From: Pseudomonadota bacterium
GTDB lineage: Bacteria > Pseudomonadota > Gammaproteobacteria > Burkholderiales > UBA11063
Direction of reading: 5' to 3'
DNA: 64,000 nucleotides
Assembly: GCA_003962985.1 (NCBI GenBank)
Contig: RXKA01000058.1
Coordinates: 11,051-75,050, forward strand
Positions 35,010 to 45,939 of this stretch are shown piece by piece. Below the pieces are notes generated by a model that was not told the DNA's origin, made no database searches, and saw only the letters and a list, made by a program, of their open reading frames with translations. The position numbers and the translations under genes are program-made. Within the stretch, counting starts at the first letter, position 1, and every line of letters starts with the position of its first letter.

Positions 35010-35948
35010 ATGATAAAATTCGGCTTTAATTATCTGTGTTACTATGTTCCTAATATGAAAAAATTCCTCATTACGACAACCCTCAAGTTATTATCACTGT
35101 TACCTCTGTCTGCAATTCGTGCTATTGGTGCTGCAGTTGGTATCTTGGTACTTAAATTATCCAAAAACAGTTCGCGCCGATTACGTAAAAACTTACTTAT
35201 TACTGGACTTGCGACCGAAGAAAATATTGACCTCATGGTACGTAAGACCGCAGAGGCAATGGGTATGACACTTGCTGAAGCAGCACTAATTGCATGGCAA
35301 AAAAACTATTCACGAATCAATAAGTTATTTGAAGTTGATGAAAGTTTTACAAAAGTCAAACAACTACTAGCATCTGGGCAAAATATTGTTTTCTTAACAC
35401 CCCACATTGGTAATTTTGAGCTAGCAATTAAATACTTTGCCCTCAACCTTCCAATGAATATTAATATTCTCTATAAACCCGAGAAAGATCCAATATTAAA
35501 TGCGATCATGTTAGAAGGTCGTACCGAGCCAAACGTTACCCCTGTTCCAACCAATCGTAAAGGTGTGCTTAGCTTGATGAAACACTTCAAGTCTGGTGGT
35601 ACCATTGGAATTCTTCCTGACAATGTCGCATCGGGTGGCGATGGTGAATGGGTGAAATTTTTCGGACATTATGTATATGCAACTTCATTAGCCGCTAAAA
35701 TCTGTCAAACACCCAATTCTTGTGTAATGTTCGTGCAAAATTTGCGTACTCCGAATGGATTCAAATCACGTTGTATACCATTTAATCCAAGTTCATCAGA
35801 TACCCATAACATTATTCAAGAAATGTATGGTGAAATTGAAAAAATGGTACTTGAGGCACCAGAACAATATTATTGGTCATACGATCGTTTCAGAGACGTA
35901 ACGGGTGCTAAACCAAAACCTAACGATTATCAGGAAATAAACAATTGA
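35010..35948 (+). CDS. Lipid A late acyltransferase-family protein (probable start 35055)
   Basis: LTPHIGNFE catalytic HxxxD/E, ILPDN, VKFFG and PEQYYWSYDRF. Confidence 0.85.
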   Translation: MIKFGFNYLCYYVPNMKKFLITTTLKLLSLLPLSAIRAIGAAVGILVLKLSKNSSRRLRKNLLITGLATEENIDLMVRKTAEAMGMTLAEAALIAWQKNYSRINKLFEVDESFTKVKQLLASGQNIVFLTPHIGNFELAIKYFALNLPMNINILYKPEKDPILNAIMLEGRTEPNVTPVPTNRKGVLSLMKHFKSGGTIGILPDNVASGGDGEWVKFFGHYVYATSLAAKICQTPNSCVMFVQNLRTPNGFKSRCIPFNPSSSDTHNIIQEMYGEIEKMVLEAPEQYYWSYDRFRDVTGAKPKPNDYQEINN

Positions 35949-36844
35949 AAGACATACCTATCAAATTAGGGCTGGGAATTCTGCGCATCTTATCGTGGAT
36001 TCCATTGCCAATTTTAAATAAAATCGGTAGCGGATTAGGCATTGCTTGCTATCATATCTTACGTAGCCGTCGCAACGTGGGTTTAATTAATCTACGTTTA
36101 TGCTTTCCTGATTGGAGTGAAGAACAGCGCCATGAACTTATTAAACAACATTTTAAAGAGTTGTTTATTTCTGGTTTAGCATATGGATTAATTTTTTATG
36201 CAAGTGCCGACAAATTGCGTCGTCTCATTGATATCCGCGGCTTAGAAAACTATAACAATATTCGCGGTAAAGAACCAGTTATCTTACTTGCTCCACATTT
36301 CTTAGCACTTGATATTGGTGCAAATCGTCTCACACTAGAAACCCCTGGGTATAGCGTGTATTCAGCTCAACGTAGCCAATACCTAACAGAACGCATTAAA
36401 GAAGCACGGTTAAGATTTATCAAAGACGGTGGAGGAGAAATTTTCTCACGACAAGAGGGATTACGTACGATCGTACGTAAAATGAAGCAGACAATGATTC
36501 CATTTTATTATCTACCCGACCAAGACATGGACGAAAAAAACTCAGTTTATGTACCATTTTTTGCCCATCCAACCTGCGCAACCTTGGAGACCTTGCCAAA
36601 ACTAGTTCAATTAACCAATGCCAAAATTATCCCAATGGCAACCTACCGCGAAGGTAATAAATATGTAGTAGAATTATCACCAGCATGGGAAAACTATCCA
36701 ACTGGAGATGTTATCAACGATGTTACGATCATGAATCGTTATATTGAAACTATGATTATGAAACAACCAACCCAGTATCTATGGTTACATAAGCGCTTTA
36801 AAACACAACCAAACAAACCACGTGGCGCACTATACAAAAATTAA
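35945..36844 (+). CDS. lpxL: Lipid A lauroyl/acyltransferase
   Basis: LAPHFLALD, YLPDQD, VPFFA and PTQYLWLHKRFKTQP; TTG start overlapping the upstream stop. Confidence 0.85.
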   Translation: MKDIPIKLGLGILRILSWIPLPILNKIGSGLGIACYHILRSRRNVGLINLRLCFPDWSEEQRHELIKQHFKELFISGLAYGLIFYASADKLRRLIDIRGLENYNNIRGKEPVILLAPHFLALDIGANRLTLETPGYSVYSAQRSQYLTERIKEARLRFIKDGGGEIFSRQEGLRTIVRKMKQTMIPFYYLPDQDMDEKNSVYVPFFAHPTCATLETLPKLVQLTNAKIIPMATYREGNKYVVELSPAWENYPTGDVINDVTIMNRYIETMIMKQPTQYLWLHKRFKTQPNKPRGALYKN

Positions 36845-36870: not shown

Positions 36871-37548
36871 ATGGCAAAAATACCTTTAGCACCTGAACTA
36901 CGCAAAATACTATTCCCGTACAGTTTAGGAGAAGATATTGGCAATGCCGTATCGCATTGTGTTGGGGCATTTATTGCACTTGGATTAATGATTAGCTTGG
37001 CGTGGATCGCTGGTCGTTATGGCAATGCGATTGACGGACTGGCATTTATCTTTTATGGGATTACAATATTATTTATGTTTGTAATGAGTACGGTATATCA
37101 TTCAATGGTGAATACTACTGCCCGTAAAGTAATGAAGCGGCTCGACCATGTGTCGATATTTGTATTGATTCTTGGTTCTTATACCCCATACGTGTTTAGC
37201 CTATTAAAAACTACCTTAGCGTATTGGATATATGCATTTTTATTTTGTCTAACCGTTCTTGGTATCGTCTTTAAATCATTATACGCTGGGAAATTTAAAA
37301 AAACTAGTACCTTAATCTTTGTATTAATGGGCTGGATGTCAGTATTTTTATTGCCGCAAATTTTAGCTAAATTGCCAACCATGGGGGTAATATTCTTCAT
37401 TTCTAGTGGCATAATTTATACCATCGGCGCGATATTTTATGCCTTGAGTAAATTCAAATACTCGCATATGGTATGGCATATTTTTGTAATCTTTGCCGTG
37501 ATTGCAATGTACTTATCAATAGCATTTTATATCTTACAATATCGCTAA
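36871..37548 (+). CDS. Hemolysin III / PAQR-family membrane protein
   Basis: EDIGNAVSH, STVYHS, RLDHVSIFVLILGSYTP, GWM and HMVWHIFV. Confidence 0.93.
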   Translation: MAKIPLAPELRKILFPYSLGEDIGNAVSHCVGAFIALGLMISLAWIAGRYGNAIDGLAFIFYGITILFMFVMSTVYHSMVNTTARKVMKRLDHVSIFVLILGSYTPYVFSLLKTTLAYWIYAFLFCLTVLGIVFKSLYAGKFKKTSTLIFVLMGWMSVFLLPQILAKLPTMGVIFFISSGIIYTIGAIFYALSKFKYSHMVWHIFVIFAVIAMYLSIAFYILQYR

Positions 37549-37602: not shown

Positions 37603-39327
37603 ATGAAAAAACTACTTACCTTGTTTATTATATTCTTTTGCCTACTGATTACCAGTTGTAGTACTGGAACTACAGGACAATCGGGTGAAACACTAAACAG
37701 TATAACCAAAAATGAGTCTGGTATCTTAGTTACTGTGGGTAATCATGGCATGATTCAAACCTCCAGTGATAATGGCATTCAGTGGCACACTCAAATTTCA
37801 AATACTAGCAATAACTTAAATGGTGTCGCCTATGGTAATAAACAATTTATTGCCGTTGGGAATAATACAATCTTATCATCAGCAGATGGTACTACATGGA
37901 ATGTCATTAATCAGACATTAAATACCAATTTAGCTGGTATTATCTATAGCCAAGGTAAGTTCATCGCGGTTGGTAATGATAAAACATCTGGCAATGGTGT
38001 AATCTTATCCTCACTAGATGGTAGCACATGGAAAATCGATTATTCCGCAGCAGATATTGGCGCGCTAAAAAGCGTAACATATGGTAATGGTAAATTTATT
38101 GTCGTGGGAATAAGTTCATTATTAACTTCCATCGACAACGGGATTACTTGGACGAAAGCCCAAGTATCAATTTATCCATTATATGGCGTGACATATGGTA
38201 ACAATAAATTTGTTGCGGTTGGCGCACAAGCTGCACATAAAGGTGTTGTGGTTACTTCAGCTGAAGATAATCAATGGACCAATATTAATACCAATTTTGT
38301 ATATGAATTTGAGGCAATTACATACAACGGTACCTTTGTCGCGGTTGGTCAACATGGTGCAGTATATAGTTCAACTGATGGAATAACGTGGAATAAAATT
38401 ATCTCAGGAACAAATGGCTATTTGTATGGTGTCACATCAACAATTGATGGTAAGTTTATTGCAGTGGGTAGTAATAGTACCATAATCAGCTTAAACGTAT
38501 CTGGCAATAACTCATATCATGGCGTGACATATGGCAATGGTAAATTTATTGCAGTTGGTGATAAAGGTCTCCTCAAAACTTCTAATGATGGTATATCGTG
38601 GATAACACAAAATTCCTCAACTCAAAAATCACTCATGGCAGTAGTATCAGGAACCAATTTACCTTATATAGCAGTTGGTACTGCTGGTACGATAGTTATG
38701 TCTCCAGATGGCGTTAATTGGGCGACCCAGTCATCAGGAGTTAGTGAATCCAACCTATTTGCAATTACATATGGGAACAATCAATATGTTGTCGTAGGAC
38801 AAAATGGCGTTATTCTCACATCACCAAATGGTATAACGTGGAATAAGCAGCAAGCAGTAAATAATTCATTATACGGTATAACTTATGCCAATAACCTATT
38901 TGTTGCAGTTGGATTATTTGGCTCCATTTATACTTCGCCAGATGGTTCAATCTGGACACAACAATCGTCGGGAACTGATGCATGGTTGACGGGGATTAGT
39001 GTCAATTCTGATGGTGAATTTGTAGTTGTTGGCATTGATAATAATGGAAACAGCATTTCATTGACTTCACCAGATTGCAGCACGTGGACAACACAAGCCA
39101 ATAATTTAGCGCAATTATACGGTACTACTTACAATGCACCATTAAACTACTATCTAGCGTTTGGTTATGATGGAACGCTGTTAAGTTCTACAAATGGTGC
39201 TGATTGGACGGCATTGTCATCAGGAACCAATGAAGATTTATTTGCTGCAGCAGTCAATGAAAGTGGTAATTCAGTAATAGTTGGCGCTAATCAAACTATC
39301 ATTTATTTTAAGAAACAATATAAATAA
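37603..39327 (+). CDS. BNR/beta-propeller repeat lipoprotein
   Basis: Lipobox LITSC; about 13-14 repeats of V/ITYGNGKF.AVG..G.I..S.DG..W. Confidence 0.85.
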   Translation: MKKLLTLFIIFFCLLITSCSTGTTGQSGETLNSITKNESGILVTVGNHGMIQTSSDNGIQWHTQISNTSNNLNGVAYGNKQFIAVGNNTILSSADGTTWNVINQTLNTNLAGIIYSQGKFIAVGNDKTSGNGVILSSLDGSTWKIDYSAADIGALKSVTYGNGKFIVVGISSLLTSIDNGITWTKAQVSIYPLYGVTYGNNKFVAVGAQAAHKGVVVTSAEDNQWTNINTNFVYEFEAITYNGTFVAVGQHGAVYSSTDGITWNKIISGTNGYLYGVTSTIDGKFIAVGSNSTIISLNVSGNNSYHGVTYGNGKFIAVGDKGLLKTSNDGISWITQNSSTQKSLMAVVSGTNLPYIAVGTAGTIVMSPDGVNWATQSSGVSESNLFAITYGNNQYVVVGQNGVILTSPNGITWNKQQAVNNSLYGITYANNLFVAVGLFGSIYTSPDGSIWTQQSSGTDAWLTGISVNSDGEFVVVGIDNNGNSISLTSPDCSTWTTQANNLAQLYGTTYNAPLNYYLAFGYDGTLLSSTNGADWTALSSGTNEDLFAAAVNESGNSVIVGANQTIIYFKKQYK

Positions 39328-39336
39328 AACCACCTA

Positions 39337-39373
39337 CCCTAGATTAGTGATAGCGCATATTGTTAATCTAGGG
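39337..39373. terminator. Hairpin between convergent genes
   Basis: ccctagatta-N17-taatctaggg, 10-bp inverted repeat. Confidence 0.6.
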
Positions 39374-39384
39374 CTAATTTATAT

Positions 39385-41454
39385 TTATATAAAAAATATA
39401 GCAGTTATCACAAGTACTACCAGCAGCAATGATGGAATTGCTGCAATTTTCACAAATAGATTATCACCATACATAATAAATTTATTTGTTCTACGTGCAA
39501 AATAAAATGCATTAGCAATGAGTAACAGTATCGCTAAATAAAATACTAAATAAATATACTCAATATACATTAAATCTGCTAATACCTTATTTCTCAATGT
39601 TGCATGTGCAAATATTAGAGTAAAAAACATCCCTGTTGTCGCTGATATTAATCGTGGTACATCAAATCTAATATGATCATTTGGTTTTCTTGAAATTGTA
39701 AGTAATGTAATGAATAAAATAACCAAGATGACAATAAATGGCACCATTGTAGTAATTATGCCATTTGCTAAATTAGAATTTACCAGTATATTAAATCTTA
39801 GAGCAGGTAGTTCTAATGCACGATAATTATTTACCGCATCAGACATCTCGATAACGTCACTCATAAAACTAAAATAAGTTCCAGAGATATTCCAATTAGG
39901 AATCACTACTTGCGGATTGATACCATTTGCTTTATTGATATCATGTAATCCACTATAAAACGTAAAATCAGGAACCAATACTATATTTTCTTTATTACTA
40001 GATGGAGCTATTGAAAGCCAAATATTACCGTGTGTAAATGGATATCGACTATAATCAATACTATGTCGAATGTTAATATCAAATGCCCAAGTTGCTATGT
40101 CATAAGTTGGAGTGTGTTTAATATTAATTAATTTCACATTCCCATTTGATGAATCATTTAATCGTACACCAACTAATTCTGATTCACCAATACTATAGCG
40201 CTGCATGATATTACCATGTAAATTTACTTCATAAGAGTCTAAAAATTTGGCACTATTAATCACAATTGAAGTTGGAATTTGGACAAGTGGAGAAATTTTC
40301 TTTAAACTTGCCTCTGATTCAACATTTTTTAGATTGACATTTAATGTTTGTACGTCAGTGATTGCATCACTGGTATTCACATAATATAGATTACTAGAAA
40401 CTAACCAAATAGAAGATATACACAACACAAGTAGCACAGAAGTGATAATTGAGCCAGTCCACAAAAACTTTTTGGTTGATTTCCTAAAGGATATTTTGGT
40501 AATAAAAATCCATGTCAAACTAATAAATAACAAATATGAAAAAATTACTAGTGTTATGTATGGGGCATGGTTAACTGGTCTATCTAAAGATTTTAGATAA
40601 TCAGGTGTATATTCGGCTAGAATAATCCAAGGAACATTACTAAGCTTGTAAATAAGAAAAGTTAAGTCTGTACCATTATTATCAACATGTCGAACACATT
40701 GCTGTGAACAATTTTGACCAAGACTTAAAAAAAGTTTGTTTTCTAGAGATGACTGATTGTTTTGAACATTTAAGCCAAGTAGAGAATATTTCTTTTCATA
40801 TTTATAGATATAATCTCCATTTGAATTTATAATAGTAACATACTGACTACCTAAATTGCTTGCGACAAATTCATCGATAGCAGTCAAATCAATATCTAAA
40901 GCAACAACCCCTATTTTCTGATGTTGCTCATCAAAAAATGGTACGGAATAACTAACCATAAACTCTTTTGATGCACCATCATAATATGGTCTACTCCAGT
41001 TTTTATTGTCTCTAATAACATTATTATACCACTGATTTTGTTCAATATTTATAGAATAATCATAATCATACAGAGAAGACTCCATTAAGCTACCATTATT
41101 TTGCCAGTATATATTTTGGTGTGGCATTGGATAATCTGGTACATAAACTATTCCAATACCCAAGATAGACTTATCTTTATATAACTGTAATCTCTCTATA
41201 TCAGATACAACAAATTTATGATTAGTTATATCTGATGCTATTTTATTAACTATATTTTGTATATTTTGAGATTTTTGAGAAATCAAATTAGCACTAGAAC
41301 TTATCAACGAATCTTGATTATTGAGAATGTTATTCTGCCTGATTTGTCGATCATTAATAATAGTATATATGCTTAATATTACAAACATGATACTTATAAA
41401 TGATAATATGTATAAAAATAACAATGACTTTCTTCTAACTTTCTCAGAGAACAT
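39385..41454 (-). CDS. dCache sensor fused to a prokaryotic pentameric ligand-gated ion channel-like domain
   Basis: TM-dCache (QWY..WSRPYYD..MVSYSVPF..IGVVALDI)-2TM, then a beta-rich domain with Pro-loop-like IDYSRYPF, PNWNI, LRFNILV, and four C-terminal TM helices. Confidence 0.72.
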   Translation of the reverse strand: MFSEKVRRKSLLFLYILSFISIMFVILSIYTIINDRQIRQNNILNNQDSLISSSANLISQKSQNIQNIVNKIASDITNHKFVVSDIERLQLYKDKSILGIGIVYVPDYPMPHQNIYWQNNGSLMESSLYDYDYSINIEQNQWYNNVIRDNKNWSRPYYDGASKEFMVSYSVPFFDEQHQKIGVVALDIDLTAIDEFVASNLGSQYVTIINSNGDYIYKYEKKYSLLGLNVQNNQSSLENKLFLSLGQNCSQQCVRHVDNNGTDLTFLIYKLSNVPWIILAEYTPDYLKSLDRPVNHAPYITLVIFSYLLFISLTWIFITKISFRKSTKKFLWTGSIITSVLLVLCISSIWLVSSNLYYVNTSDAITDVQTLNVNLKNVESEASLKKISPLVQIPTSIVINSAKFLDSYEVNLHGNIMQRYSIGESELVGVRLNDSSNGNVKLINIKHTPTYDIATWAFDINIRHSIDYSRYPFTHGNIWLSIAPSSNKENIVLVPDFTFYSGLHDINKANGINPQVVIPNWNISGTYFSFMSDVIEMSDAVNNYRALELPALRFNILVNSNLANGIITTMVPFIVILVILFITLLTISRKPNDHIRFDVPRLISATTGMFFTLIFAHATLRNKVLADLMYIEYIYLVFYLAILLLIANAFYFARRTNKFIMYGDNLFVKIAAIPSLLLVVLVITAIFFI

Positions 41455-41729: not shown

Positions 41730-42590
41730 TTACCTAGCAGAGTTCGCATTCACTAAAATATAGCCGCGGAAAGATTCTCCATCAGTGGTATTCATACTTT
41801 TATAAAGATCATATACTTTTACCCATGTCCAAGGCGCAAAAGCATTCCAAGTATCTAATATTAATACTGAGTCACTGTTTTCATCATAAGCGGCCAATGG
41901 AGAAAAATGACCGCCATTTAGAGCAGACATAACATTTAAGTTATAATTAACAATAATATATTTACTTGGGGTTTCTAGTAATTGTTTCAACAAAACCCGA
42001 AATGCAGCGATATCTGTATCTGTTGAAGTTTTTACATTAATCTTATCCGCTGTCAACCCTTGTAAATTTAGAGCAGTTGTTAATTGATCAAGAGTTACAC
42101 CCACCATATACTCGCCATTCACTTTTTCTCGACCATAGATCACTTCTTTATTTAAATAACCCTTAACATTGTTATTAAAAAAATTGTCTTCTGTCCACGT
42201 AAAATTACCATCAATTACGTTATCTTCTAGAATGTACCATGAACCTGTTTTTGATAGTGGAGGAGTTTTTCCAGTATTTGCATAAACTGTATTTAACATA
42301 ATTACAGCAGACGCTATTCCACAACTTAGAATATTACTTTGTGGACTATAGTGTGTTGATAATGAGTAAAACGCAGTTTTATATTGTGCACTATTAAAAA
42401 TAGCGATTCCTGACTCACTATTGTATGCGGTAACCGCCATCGTATTTGAGTAAGGACTAACTGTAAATTTTGCATAACCATAATCATAAATGGTCGGATT
42501 TGCTTTAGTGCCAGTAGTTGCTGCTTCACCAGACGAACAGCTAGACACTAATATACTACCTAAGAGAGATAAAAATAGTAATTTTTTCAT
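41730..42590 (-). CDS. Phytochelatin synthase-like papain-fold lipoprotein
   Basis: Lipobox LVSSC; QSNILSCGIAS (Cys), GGHFSPLAAYD (His), ILDTW (Asp), MNTTDG..RGYI. Confidence 0.88.
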   Translation of the reverse strand: MKKLLFLSLLGSILVSSCSSGEAATTGTKANPTIYDYGYAKFTVSPYSNTMAVTAYNSESGIAIFNSAQYKTAFYSLSTHYSPQSNILSCGIASAVIMLNTVYANTGKTPPLSKTGSWYILEDNVIDGNFTWTEDNFFNNNVKGYLNKEVIYGREKVNGEYMVGVTLDQLTTALNLQGLTADKINVKTSTDTDIAAFRVLLKQLLETPSKYIIVNYNLNVMSALNGGHFSPLAAYDENSDSVLILDTWNAFAPWTWVKVYDLYKSMNTTDGESFRGYILVNANSAR

Positions 42591-43854: not shown

Positions 43855-45939
43855 ATGAAAAAATTAGTCTATATATTATTGTGTCTGTCTCTAGCAAGCT
43901 GTGGTGGGGGTAGTAGTAATGAAGGTAGCGGTGGTGGTGGCGGTGGCGATAACCCTCCCAATCCGCCAGGTCCAAGTGATATAACACTTAATGGAAAATA
44001 TGTCTTGTCAGGAGATTTTGGAGCAATAACTAACTCGACAATCAGAACAAGTAAAAATAGTATTTTGGCACTAAATGCAGATAACTCATGGAAGCAAATG
44101 CCATTAGGATCACCGTCAGTATATAGTTATGTATTTGCTAAAGATCGGTTTGTTGCAATGGGTGATAAAGGACCAACAGGATTATTTGGTGAAAAGAAAC
44201 CATTATTCTCTGATGATGGTATTAATTGGTATCCTGCATCATCAACGAAGTCGAATTATACTTATATGAATTATACGGCAGATACTTTTTTTGATACTCA
44301 CGACAATATGTTCATTACAGGAAATGCAAAATCAACTGATGGTCTAACTTGGGAGTACTTTGATAATAATGCGAAGACACCCATAATATATGGTAATAAT
44401 CGTTATCTAACAATCATTAATTATAATGGGTATTACTCATTTAATGCACAAGAATGGTTACCAATGTCCACAAAGAATCTAGAAAATTACAAGAATCTAT
44501 TTTTTAATGGTCAATACTTCATAGCAGCAAATGCTGATTCTGTTTATTCTGACAACCCCCCAATGTATAATTATTCTAAAGATGGCAGCAATTGGTCACA
44601 AACAAACTACCCTATTATATACGATTCATACTACTATTACTATAGAACATCTTGCGATATCAAACAACTCAATGGTAGTTTCTTTTGCTACTTAAACATA
44701 AATGAATCATCACAAGTTGCAACCTCAACTGATGGTATCAATTGGAGTACTCCACAAGTACTAAACTTAAATGGTGAAAGCAAGTTTGCTTCAAATACGC
44801 CTATTTTTGTGAATAATAAATACTACGCATATTGTGGTAGTGGTGATAACACAAGTGGTTCATATCGTACATGTACTAGTAATGATGGCATCACATGGAA
44901 TTATTTTGGTGATCTACCTGCATTAATAACTTCTGGCAATAATATACAAAAAGATGGTTATACACAACAAAATGGTAAAGTCATAGGAGAAACTCTCACC
45001 TATCACTATGGTAAATATTTTTTATTCGGTCCTTATGGAAAAATCTGGTACTCTACTGACATGCAAACATGGACGCAAACAGTATCTGGGATAACCGTAT
45101 CAAACTACAACACATTCCATAATACTACTGGATTAGCATTTGTCTTAGGTTATACTCGCTTTGATTCTAACAAAACACAAGCTGCAATAGCCTACTCTAA
45201 CGACAACGCAGCATCTTTCAAAATGGCAAACTTACCAGAGATAGCAAAAACTCCGCGGGCAATAGCTAGCAGCGGTCACGATTATGTGGTAGTTGGTGAT
45301 GCGGGAACGGTATTACATTCTAGTGATGGCATTAATTGGTCGCAAGTAGATGTAAGCAATATCACAACGAGCGACTTAACCAATGTTGAATATCTCAATG
45401 GTAAATACTATGCTACTGGTGATTTAGGTTATGTACTTACTTCAAGTGATGGTATTAGCTGGACACATTCTCAAGCTGCTGGAAATCCTCGGTTAATGGA
45501 TATTATCTACAACAATGGTAAATACTTTATAGTCGGTTACGGCGGGTATATTGGTTATAGTCTAAATGGAACTAACTGGATAAAAGCAACTACACCAACC
45601 AGAGAACAGATCAATTCAGTAACATTCGGTAATAATGTTTACGTTGCAGTTGGTAACAATGGGACTTTAATTAGCTCAACCGATGGTGTAACTTGGACTC
45701 AGATACCAGCAAGTAATATTAACTATTCATCGTCGTCAGGTGATTATCCAATTCCAATTGGGAACATGGGTACTCTAAACTCAATTATCTATGACAGTGA
45801 AGATGGTTTTGTAGCTGTAGGTGATAATGGGTTAGTTATCAAATCCAGTGATGGTGTTAATTGGTTGAGGAACTATAACTATTCATCATCATATAATTCA
45901 TCATTATACAACTATACCAATATTACACCTCTTAACTAA
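43855..45939 (+). CDS. BNR/beta-propeller repeat lipoprotein with Gly/Pro linker
   Basis: Lipobox SLASC, GGGGGG-NPPNPP tether, many S.DG..W and YNNGKY..VG repeats. Confidence 0.85.
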   Translation: MKKLVYILLCLSLASCGGGSSNEGSGGGGGGDNPPNPPGPSDITLNGKYVLSGDFGAITNSTIRTSKNSILALNADNSWKQMPLGSPSVYSYVFAKDRFVAMGDKGPTGLFGEKKPLFSDDGINWYPASSTKSNYTYMNYTADTFFDTHDNMFITGNAKSTDGLTWEYFDNNAKTPIIYGNNRYLTIINYNGYYSFNAQEWLPMSTKNLENYKNLFFNGQYFIAANADSVYSDNPPMYNYSKDGSNWSQTNYPIIYDSYYYYYRTSCDIKQLNGSFFCYLNINESSQVATSTDGINWSTPQVLNLNGESKFASNTPIFVNNKYYAYCGSGDNTSGSYRTCTSNDGITWNYFGDLPALITSGNNIQKDGYTQQNGKVIGETLTYHYGKYFLFGPYGKIWYSTDMQTWTQTVSGITVSNYNTFHNTTGLAFVLGYTRFDSNKTQAAIAYSNDNAASFKMANLPEIAKTPRAIASSGHDYVVVGDAGTVLHSSDGINWSQVDVSNITTSDLTNVEYLNGKYYATGDLGYVLTSSDGISWTHSQAAGNPRLMDIIYNNGKYFIVGYGGYIGYSLNGTNWIKATTPTREQINSVTFGNNVYVAVGNNGTLISSTDGVTWTQIPASNINYSSSSGDYPIPIGNMGTLNSIIYDSEDGFVAVGDNGLVIKSSDGVNWLRNYNYSSSYNSSLYNYTNITPLN

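Follow-up and report, generated by a model that had tools for sequence, protein, structure and literature searches.

Can a single bacterial polypeptide carry a sensor of the kind found in kinases and chemoreceptors and, as its output, the subunit of a ligand-gated ion channel of the pentameric class (pLGIC)? The question is raised by one gene in a 64,000-nucleotide stretch of contig RXKA01000058.1 (assembly GCA_003962985.1; hereafter, the window), which belongs to a Burkholderiales bacterium of the lineage UBA11063. An earlier annotation made from the letters alone (the sequence-only reading) had described the open reading frame at 39385-41454 as a Cache domain fused to a pLGIC homolog. Here we show that the C-terminal 330 residues of its product form a complete pLGIC subunit fold homologous to GLIC, and that the N-terminal half is a periplasmic dCache sensor. 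The motifs on which the earlier annotation relied are all present in the translation, namely DYSRYPF (residues 467-473), PNWNI (519-523), LRFNILV (552-558), TTMVPFIV (568-575), and ATTGMFFTLIFAH (605-617).

As a single sequence, the C-terminal half had no match in Pfam, NCBIfam, or the PDB. We therefore relied on a family profile, A1, built from the channel module of the window protein and 26 stand-alone members (27 sequences). Searched against the PDB, this profile found GLIC at an E value of 2e-5, and among the matches listed, 60 of 60 were GLIC or GLIC chimeras. The HMMER alignment covered GLIC residues 102 to 314 and stayed in register from the Pro-loop to M4. It passes through the Pro-loop (YskYPfD in the family, FRRYPFD at F116-D122 of GLIC), G159-W160 of loop B, the beta10/pre-M1 segment L184-R192, P204 of M1, and then M2, M3, and M4. 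W521, which 65 of the 69 long family members retain, occupies the position of the loop-B residue W160, and P572 aligns with P204. The M1 proline and the amphipathic M2 expected of a pLGIC are both present. The quoted motifs fall on the Pro-loop, W160, beta10/pre-M1, P204, and M2 of GLIC.

Structure prediction led to the same assignment. An AlphaFold 2 (AF2) model of residues 340 to 689 built on A1 reached a mean predicted local distance difference test score (pLDDT) of 86.5 and a predicted template modeling score (pTM) of 0.81, and consisted of one transmembrane (TM) helix, an alpha1 helix, approximately ten strands, and four helices. When this model was compared to the PDB with Foldseek, GLIC chains came first (E 2.5e-13; template modeling score of 0.74 by target length; ∼333 aligned columns), followed by GABA-A receptor chains and GLIC-receptor chimeras, with 968 PDB chains at E<=1e-3. 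A full-length model on 69 sequences (pLDDT 86.6, pTM 0.82) produced the same GLIC fold result, and its listed matches also included glycine-receptor and ELIC chains. The N-terminal helix, the 10-strand beta-sandwich of the extracellular domain (ECD), and the M1-M4 bundle that make up a pLGIC subunit are thus all in place. Failure of this half to model as a pLGIC was one of the outcomes by which the sequence-only reading would have been refuted, and a pLGIC fold is what we found.

The assignment of the N-terminal half as a dCache domain, also part of the earlier annotation, was likewise confirmed. Residues 41 to 279 matched dCache_1 (PF02743) with 52.7 bits against a Pfam cut-off of 45, residues 93 to 194 matched MCP-like_PDC_1 (PF22673) with an E value of 4.5e-16, and the model places a double-PDC fold between TM1 and TM2. 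Among solved structures, the closest in sequence was a protein described as a Cache domain protein (9hvj, E 1e-7), followed by the sensor of soHK1S-Z6, a kinase of Shewanella (3lic, E 3e-6), and Foldseek superimposed the full-length AlphaFold model on 3LIC with a template modeling score of 0.73 at 20% identity. Within the genus, W153, P156, Y157, Y158, D159, D187, and D189 are invariant.

What the sensor binds is a separate matter. The sequence-only reading had hinted at an amino-acid-type pocket that kept the WY, Y, and D of the motif with Q in place of R. The motif of dCache_1AA domains is Y121-x4-R126-x-W128-Y129...Y144...D173 (Gumerov et al. 2022, PMC8915833), and the corresponding positions in the window protein are I135, N140, W142, Y143, Y158, and D187. 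The WY, Y, and D are indeed kept, but the position of the Arg, two residues before the Trp, is N140, which lies between Q139 and Q141, and both residues that bind the carboxylate (Y121 and R126) are replaced. Across the family, Arg is found at its position in 0 of 69 members, and the first Tyr position is a gap in 65 of 69. The W142-Y143 pair is a general trait of this Cache subtype (W in 62 of 69) and is not conserved among congeners; D187 is variable across the family. We therefore reject an amino-acid-type pocket for this protein. The genus has a feature of its own in C249 and C253, which are invariant in eight genus-level sequences and absent from the wider family; this C249-x3-C253 pair may form a disulfide in the periplasm or act as a site sensitive to redox state or metals.

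Between these two halves lies a part of the protein that the earlier description did not include. Hydropathy revealed six strongly hydrophobic segments, corresponding to TM1, TM2, TM3, M1, M3, and M4, with the amphipathic M2 below threshold. TM1 is preceded by a basic cytoplasmic N terminus (MFSEKVRRKS) and is continuous with the long helix that serves as the stalk of the Cache domain. TM2 and TM3, which are additional to the earlier description and lie between the Cache domain and the channel ECD, form a hairpin around a short basic cytoplasmic loop (FRKSTKK) that brings the chain back to the periplasm. The basic loops (the N terminus, the TM2-TM3 loop, the M1-M2 loop, and the M3-M4 loop) all lie on one side, which places the Cache domain, the channel beta-sandwich, and the C terminus in the periplasm. 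The protein is thus a seven-TM chain in the order TM1, dCache, TM2, TM3, ECD, and M1-M4. These elements account for all 689 residues, in agreement with the earlier claim that there is no kinase or MCP (methyl-accepting chemotaxis protein) output. The distance from W276 at the end of the Cache domain to P394 in the first ECD strand has a median of 118 residues (interquartile range, 117 to 120) among 69 members that share 20 to 35% identity, and the lengths of the ECD and of the channel transmembrane domain (TMD) are equally constant. From these lengths, we infer that the Cache-to-ECD segment would act as a rigid coupling element. The coordinates of all features are collected in Table 1.

Table 1. 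Features of the Cache-pLGIC gene and its 3' flank, in window coordinates
Feature	Position	Strand	Basis
Whole open reading frame, Cache-pLGIC fusion, 689 amino acids	39385..41454 (including stop codon)	-	ATG start
TM1, residues 8-35	41350..41433	-	Hydropathy, positive-inside count; full-length model helix 4-77
Periplasmic dCache_1 sensor, residues 41-279, two PDC modules	40618..41334	-	Pfam, PDB sequence matches, Foldseek
C249-x3-C253 pair, membrane-proximal Cache module	40696..40710	-	Alignments
TM2 (297-322) and TM3 (327-354) hairpin	40393..40566	-	Full-length model, hydropathy
pLGIC ECD, approximately residues 365-561, alpha1 helix then beta-sandwich	39772..40362	-	AF2 models, Foldseek to GLIC, profile alignment to GLIC 102-192
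Pro-loop DYSRYPFT, 467-474	40033..40056	-	Alignments
beta10 and pre-M1, LRFNILVNSN, 552-561	39772..39801	-	Alignments
Channel TMD: M1 562-585, M2 599-623, M3 630-654, M4 658-688	39388..39771	-	Profile alignment, models
M2, presumed pore-lining helix, VPRLISATTGMFFTLIFAHATLRNK	39586..39660	-	GLIC alignment, hydropathy
16-bp inverted repeat, terminator-like	39337..39373	.	Consensus scan only

Given this architecture, we compared the window protein to the systems it most resembles. Fusions of MCP-N, Cache, and ART-LGIC modules were described in Methanosarcina, Cytophaga, and Microbulbifer, that is, in both bacteria and archaea, by Tasneem, Iyer, Jakobsson & Aravind in 2004 (PMC549065). Like the window protein, they are known from sequence only, and they share its layout, with a Cache-type sensor N-terminal to a ligand-binding domain without the Cys-loop cysteines and a four-TM channel on one polypeptide; the present dCache_1 model covers what was then MCP-N plus Cache. 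The window protein is therefore a new copy of an architecture described in silico in 2004 rather than a new kind of system. The likeness is one of described domain order. The window clade differs in having no Pro-loop Asp or pre-M1 Arg, and the TM2-TM3 hairpin and seven-TM topology are not mentioned in the passages of the 2004 paper that we consulted. The sequence-only reading had stated that such fusions were noted bioinformatically and not characterized, which holds within the literature we searched.

GLIC itself (PDB 3EAM, 4HFI) is the best match of both the sequence profile and the fold. Both proteins have the YPF of the Pro-loop, the loop-B Trp, the M1 Pro, and an M2-M4 arrangement in which M3 and M4 are joined by a short loop, and both lack the cysteines of the Cys-loop. 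GLIC is only ∼14% identical to the window protein, however, and has neither an N-terminal sensor nor extra TM helices. The Desulfofustis-related channel DeCLIC resembles the window protein in having a large periplasmic accessory domain N-terminal to a canonical ECD. In DeCLIC, this N-terminal domain (NTD) is built from a pair of beta-rich lobes directly adjoining the ECD, and the channel is not known to have additional TM helices. The accessory domain of the window protein is of another type, being a dCache_1 domain tethered to the membrane on both sides and followed by two TM helices, and DeCLIC was absent among the best 50 fold matches listed. DeCLIC is the sole pLGIC with an N-terminal domain that has been even partially characterized (Fan et al. 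2025, PMC12664993). Finally, the dCache_1 sensors of kinases and chemoreceptors (soHK1S-Z6, 3LIC, and dCache_1AA domains of the PctA type) share the double-PDC fold flanked by two TMs and differ in output, which is a kinase or an MCP in those proteins and a predicted ion channel in the window protein.

To place the protein within its family, we carried out an exhaustive HMMER search with residues 340 to 689 against 1.84 billion cluster representatives (50% clustering). This search recovered 1,248 proteins when the threshold was E<=1e-3, and 136 when it was E<=1e-30, compared to only three proteins found by a word-index homolog search. Most matches are ∼700 residues long with the channel module at the C terminus, and stand-alone proteins of ∼370 residues account for approximately one-sixth of the best matches. 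Among the 69 long members, 60 carry dCache_1 at E<=1e-3 and others carry Cache_3-Cache_2 or dCache_2, showing that the Cache-channel fusion is the dominant architecture in a large family. Where these proteins have names in public sources, the name is "hypothetical protein."

The gene occurs as an intact frame of ∼700 residues in 9 of 24 congeneric genomes; the congeners are metagenome-assembled genomes labeled "uncultured Neisseria sp.," "Neisseriaceae bacterium," or "Burkholderiales bacterium." Outside the family but within the order, 16 genomes were searched and no copy was found, and in a phylum-wide sample of 301 genomes, 28 matched at E<=1e-5, with strong matches in only five besides the window's own. 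The genome of the window encodes a second paralog of 707 residues (41% identity in the channel half, 34% over the full length), and one of the nine genomes (G017) also has a third Cache-channel copy, at the start of its contig C3 (L012/L023), broken by two stops, one TAG and one TAA; paralogs have thus been gained and lost within the genus. Relative to a 65%-identical ortholog (L028), the ratio of nonsynonymous to synonymous substitution rates (dN/dS) was 0.16 for the gene as a whole. It fell from 0.23 for the Cache domain to 0.12 for the ECD and 0.065 for M1-M4, and these values are approximate because dS is near saturation. The whole gene is therefore under purifying selection, which is strongest in M1-M4. 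In approximately 20 genomes from other families of the phylum, frames of 710 to 830 residues matched the profile weakly and in its ECD part only (E 1e-7 to 1e-15); they probably represent another group of fused pLGIC-like proteins that is more distantly related.

Within this conserved channel, the interface between the ECD and the pore departs from that of GLIC. The Pro-loop-like DYSRYPF noted in the sequence-only reading is present, with Y471-P472-F473 and a Pro that is invariant in 96 of 96 sequences, but the Pro-loop Asp has been lost and the motif ends in YPFT. The position of GLIC D122 is T474 in the window protein (N or S in congeners), compared to an Asp in 25 of 27 sequences of A1 and 51 of 69 long members. 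The partner position, R192 of GLIC, is S560, and neither the window protein nor its seven genus-level relatives has a basic residue at or beside this column. Of the A1 sequences, 25 of 27 carry the pre-M1 Arg, as do 53 of the 69 long members; some of the cases scored as Lys have an Arg one column earlier, and there the alignment may be shifted by one. Asp and Arg occur together in 25 of the 27 A1 sequences and 49 of the 69 long members, and the pair is replaced by N/S, N/A, or S/S in the seven relatives. Asp is lost in 18 of 69 members, and only four of these retain the Arg. Such paired loss resembles a compensated change between residues in genuine contact. In GLIC, R192 is salt-bridged to both D122 and D32 (Nemecz et al. 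2017, PMC5760087), and GLIC relies on the D122-R192 bridge, which the window protein does not have; at the loop-2 column of D32, residues vary between N, D, and E across the family. In most pLGICs, this Asp-Arg lock holds the Pro-loop to pre-M1. Since the clade does not have it, its ECD-pore coupling is probably noncanonical and may lean more heavily on the additional helices.

The pore positions can be read from the same GLIC alignment as R-2', P2', S6', T9', F13', I16', and A20'. The family consensus for M2 is G-2', F-1', G/A 6', A/S 9', F12', F13', I/L16', H19', L22', and R23', and H617 (H19') and R621 (R23') are near-invariant signatures of the family. At -2', GLIC has Glu, the family Gly, and the window protein Arg; at 13', the Ala of GLIC is a Phe in the window protein.

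We consider it probable that the protein works as a sensor-channel, in which a ligand of the Cache domain shifts the gating of a pentameric, M2-lined pore and the ion flux is itself the output. In such a mechanism, five subunits would form a central pore lined by M2, small and polar in its lower half (S6', T9') and girdled by the hydrophobic F13' and I16' in its upper half. Binding of a small molecule in the Cache pocket farther from the membrane would alter the open probability. The signal might pass along the TM2-TM3 hairpin and alpha1 segment, whose length is conserved, or by direct contact of the Cache domain with the channel ECD, or both, and the resulting flux would change membrane potential or ion balance directly, without a kinase, an MCP, or a second messenger.

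A number of observations weigh against this sensor-channel reading. dCache domains are usually dimeric, with no obvious fit to fivefold symmetry. The charges of the M1-M2 loop are mixed (R-2', D0', R3'), such that selectivity is not readable from them, and no functional study of any Cache-fused pLGIC was found in the literature searched. The Pfam models Neur_chan_LBD and Neur_chan_memb matched neither the window protein nor any of the 27 and 69 family members; this miss reflects the limited sensitivity of the models and does not speak against homology. The training of AF2 included pLGIC structures, so that the model is not fully independent, but the sequence-profile match is independent of it and argues against an AlphaFold artifact. 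The Pro-loop Asp and pre-M1 Arg are both absent (T474, S560), and the GLIC mutant D122N gave neither current nor expression (PMC5760087).

If the protein is a channel, the Cache domain need not be what opens it. The pore could instead be gated at the channel's own orthosteric site between the beta-sandwich domains, with the Cache domain tuning gating or capturing and concentrating the ligand, which is the model of Tasneem et al. 2004 (PMC549065), who suggested several ligand sites with allosteric interplay. Conservation offers some encouragement, given that the loop-B Trp (W521) is retained in 65 of 69 members and that constraint is tighter on the ECD than on the Cache domain (dN/dS, 0.12 versus 0.23). 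The stand-alone proteins of ∼370 residues further imply that the channel module can work without a Cache domain, and the NTD of DeCLIC modulates gating rather than driving it (PMC12664993). However, loop C (residues 536 to 543) is poorly conserved and modeled with low confidence, the Cache fusion dominates the family, and the constant length of the Cache-to-ECD linker fits mechanical coupling better than it fits a loose accessory role. We regard gating from the orthosteric site as possible, though doubtful.

The hairpin also suggests a second route for a Cache signal. As in kinases and chemoreceptors, the ligand would move TM2, and the hairpin, packed on the outer helices, would relay this movement sideways to M1-M4. 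Such gating through the membrane is speculative and, in our view, rather unlikely, but if true, it would be a route not known for any pentameric channel. The window clade, with its Asp-Arg lock lost and a genome nearly without other sensors, would then be an extreme case in which the lateral route is dominant and the ECD route weakened.

The loss of the Asp-Arg pair invites a further explanation, namely that the pLGIC module of this clade does not conduct ions at all and serves as a pentamerizing membrane scaffold or conformational transducer. Both residues are missing from the window protein and its seven genus-level relatives, a single substitution at the Asp makes GLIC nonfunctional and unexpressed (D122N, as above), and bulky Phe residues occupy 12' and 13'. 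The conservation of the pore argues otherwise. No part of the protein is more strongly conserved than the TMD (dN/dS, 0.065), M2 is still amphipathic and keeps the family signatures H19' and R23', and F12'F13' is the family consensus, not a peculiarity of the clade. Elsewhere in the family, the Asp and Arg are usually lost together, as in a compensated change, and the triad of D32, D122, and R192 is "often conserved" but not universal among working pLGICs, with ELIC and GluCl as exceptions (PMC5760087). A nonconducting module is thus improbable, and the sensor-channel reading remains the one that we favor.

To understand what such a sensor-channel might do in its host, we surveyed the genome and the surroundings of the gene. 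The host belongs to a low-GC (∼34%) betaproteobacterial lineage, and its 2.5-Mb genome is 94% complete. Within this assembly, we found no MCP signaling domain and no flagellin. The four HATPase_c matches comprise one NtrY-like histidine kinase and GyrB, MutL, and HtpG, the last three recognized by eye from N-terminal signatures. The only dCache_1 proteins are the two Cache-channel paralogs; a third dCache_1 match, on contig C22, proved to be a TPR/coiled-coil protein and not a Cache protein. The two Cache-channels are therefore a large share of the organism's recognizable membrane sensors, and so small a signaling repertoire for 2.5 Mb suggests a host-associated or otherwise reduced lifestyle. 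A role as a chemotaxis receptor whose ion flux steers motility, suggested for bacterial pLGICs in general in the 2004 paper (PMC549065) and in keeping with the Cache domains typical of chemoreceptor sensors, is very unlikely in this organism given a 94%-complete genome with no MCP signaling domain, no flagellin, and one histidine kinase, although pilus-based motility lies outside these searches.

No conserved operon partner, such as a binding protein, was found at the window locus, at the locus of the 65%-identical ortholog, or at the congener loci. The ortholog sits between rho and dapD, and in one congeneric subclade the gene has hisS-bamB-der to one side and trpEGDC to the other. Since no neighboring gene is conserved, the Cache-channel protein most likely works alone. 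At the loci of two congeners only (L013, 3-2216, and L024, 2366-4750), a protein of 740 to 790 residues without a Pfam match precedes the channel gene on the same strand.

The neighbors in the window are lipoproteins and membrane proteins. The gene 275 bp upstream on the same strand (41730-42590, minus) encodes a lipoprotein in which a papain-like domain of the phytochelatin-synthase type was recognized (PF05023, E 1e-33), and it is not conserved beside the orthologs. Large lipoproteins flank the locus at 37603-39327 (plus; 574 residues) and 43855-45939 (plus; 694 residues), both with many "GNGKFIAVG"-like repeats and weak DUF6242/beta-propeller matches, and they look like paralogous secreted propellers. 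The inverted repeat in Table 1 lies between the channel gene and the first of these, which is convergent with it, and could be a terminator for both strands. Farther along are two tandem lipid A biosynthesis acyltransferase genes and then a haemolysin-III (HlyIII)/PAQR-family membrane protein (35010-36844 and 36871-37548, both plus).

pLGICs are major drug targets, and the bacterial channels GLIC and ELIC gave the field its first structures. The family described here exposes an annotation gap, in that neither Pfam nor NCBIfam detects the channel half of its 1,248 clusters (at 50% identity), and public records accordingly list the proteins as "hypothetical" or "Cache domain" proteins. For this host, which has no MCP domain or flagellin and a single histidine kinase, a role in flagellar chemotaxis is hardly to be expected. 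The window copy is a natural variant without the Asp-Arg interface lock that GLIC needs. More broadly, the family links a Cache sensor for small molecules to a pLGIC pore, each of them a module that is well understood, by way of a two-helix hairpin that is probably rigid, and so provides a natural system for asking how a sensor is coupled to a pentameric pore and how a dimer-prone Cache domain is reconciled with fivefold symmetry.

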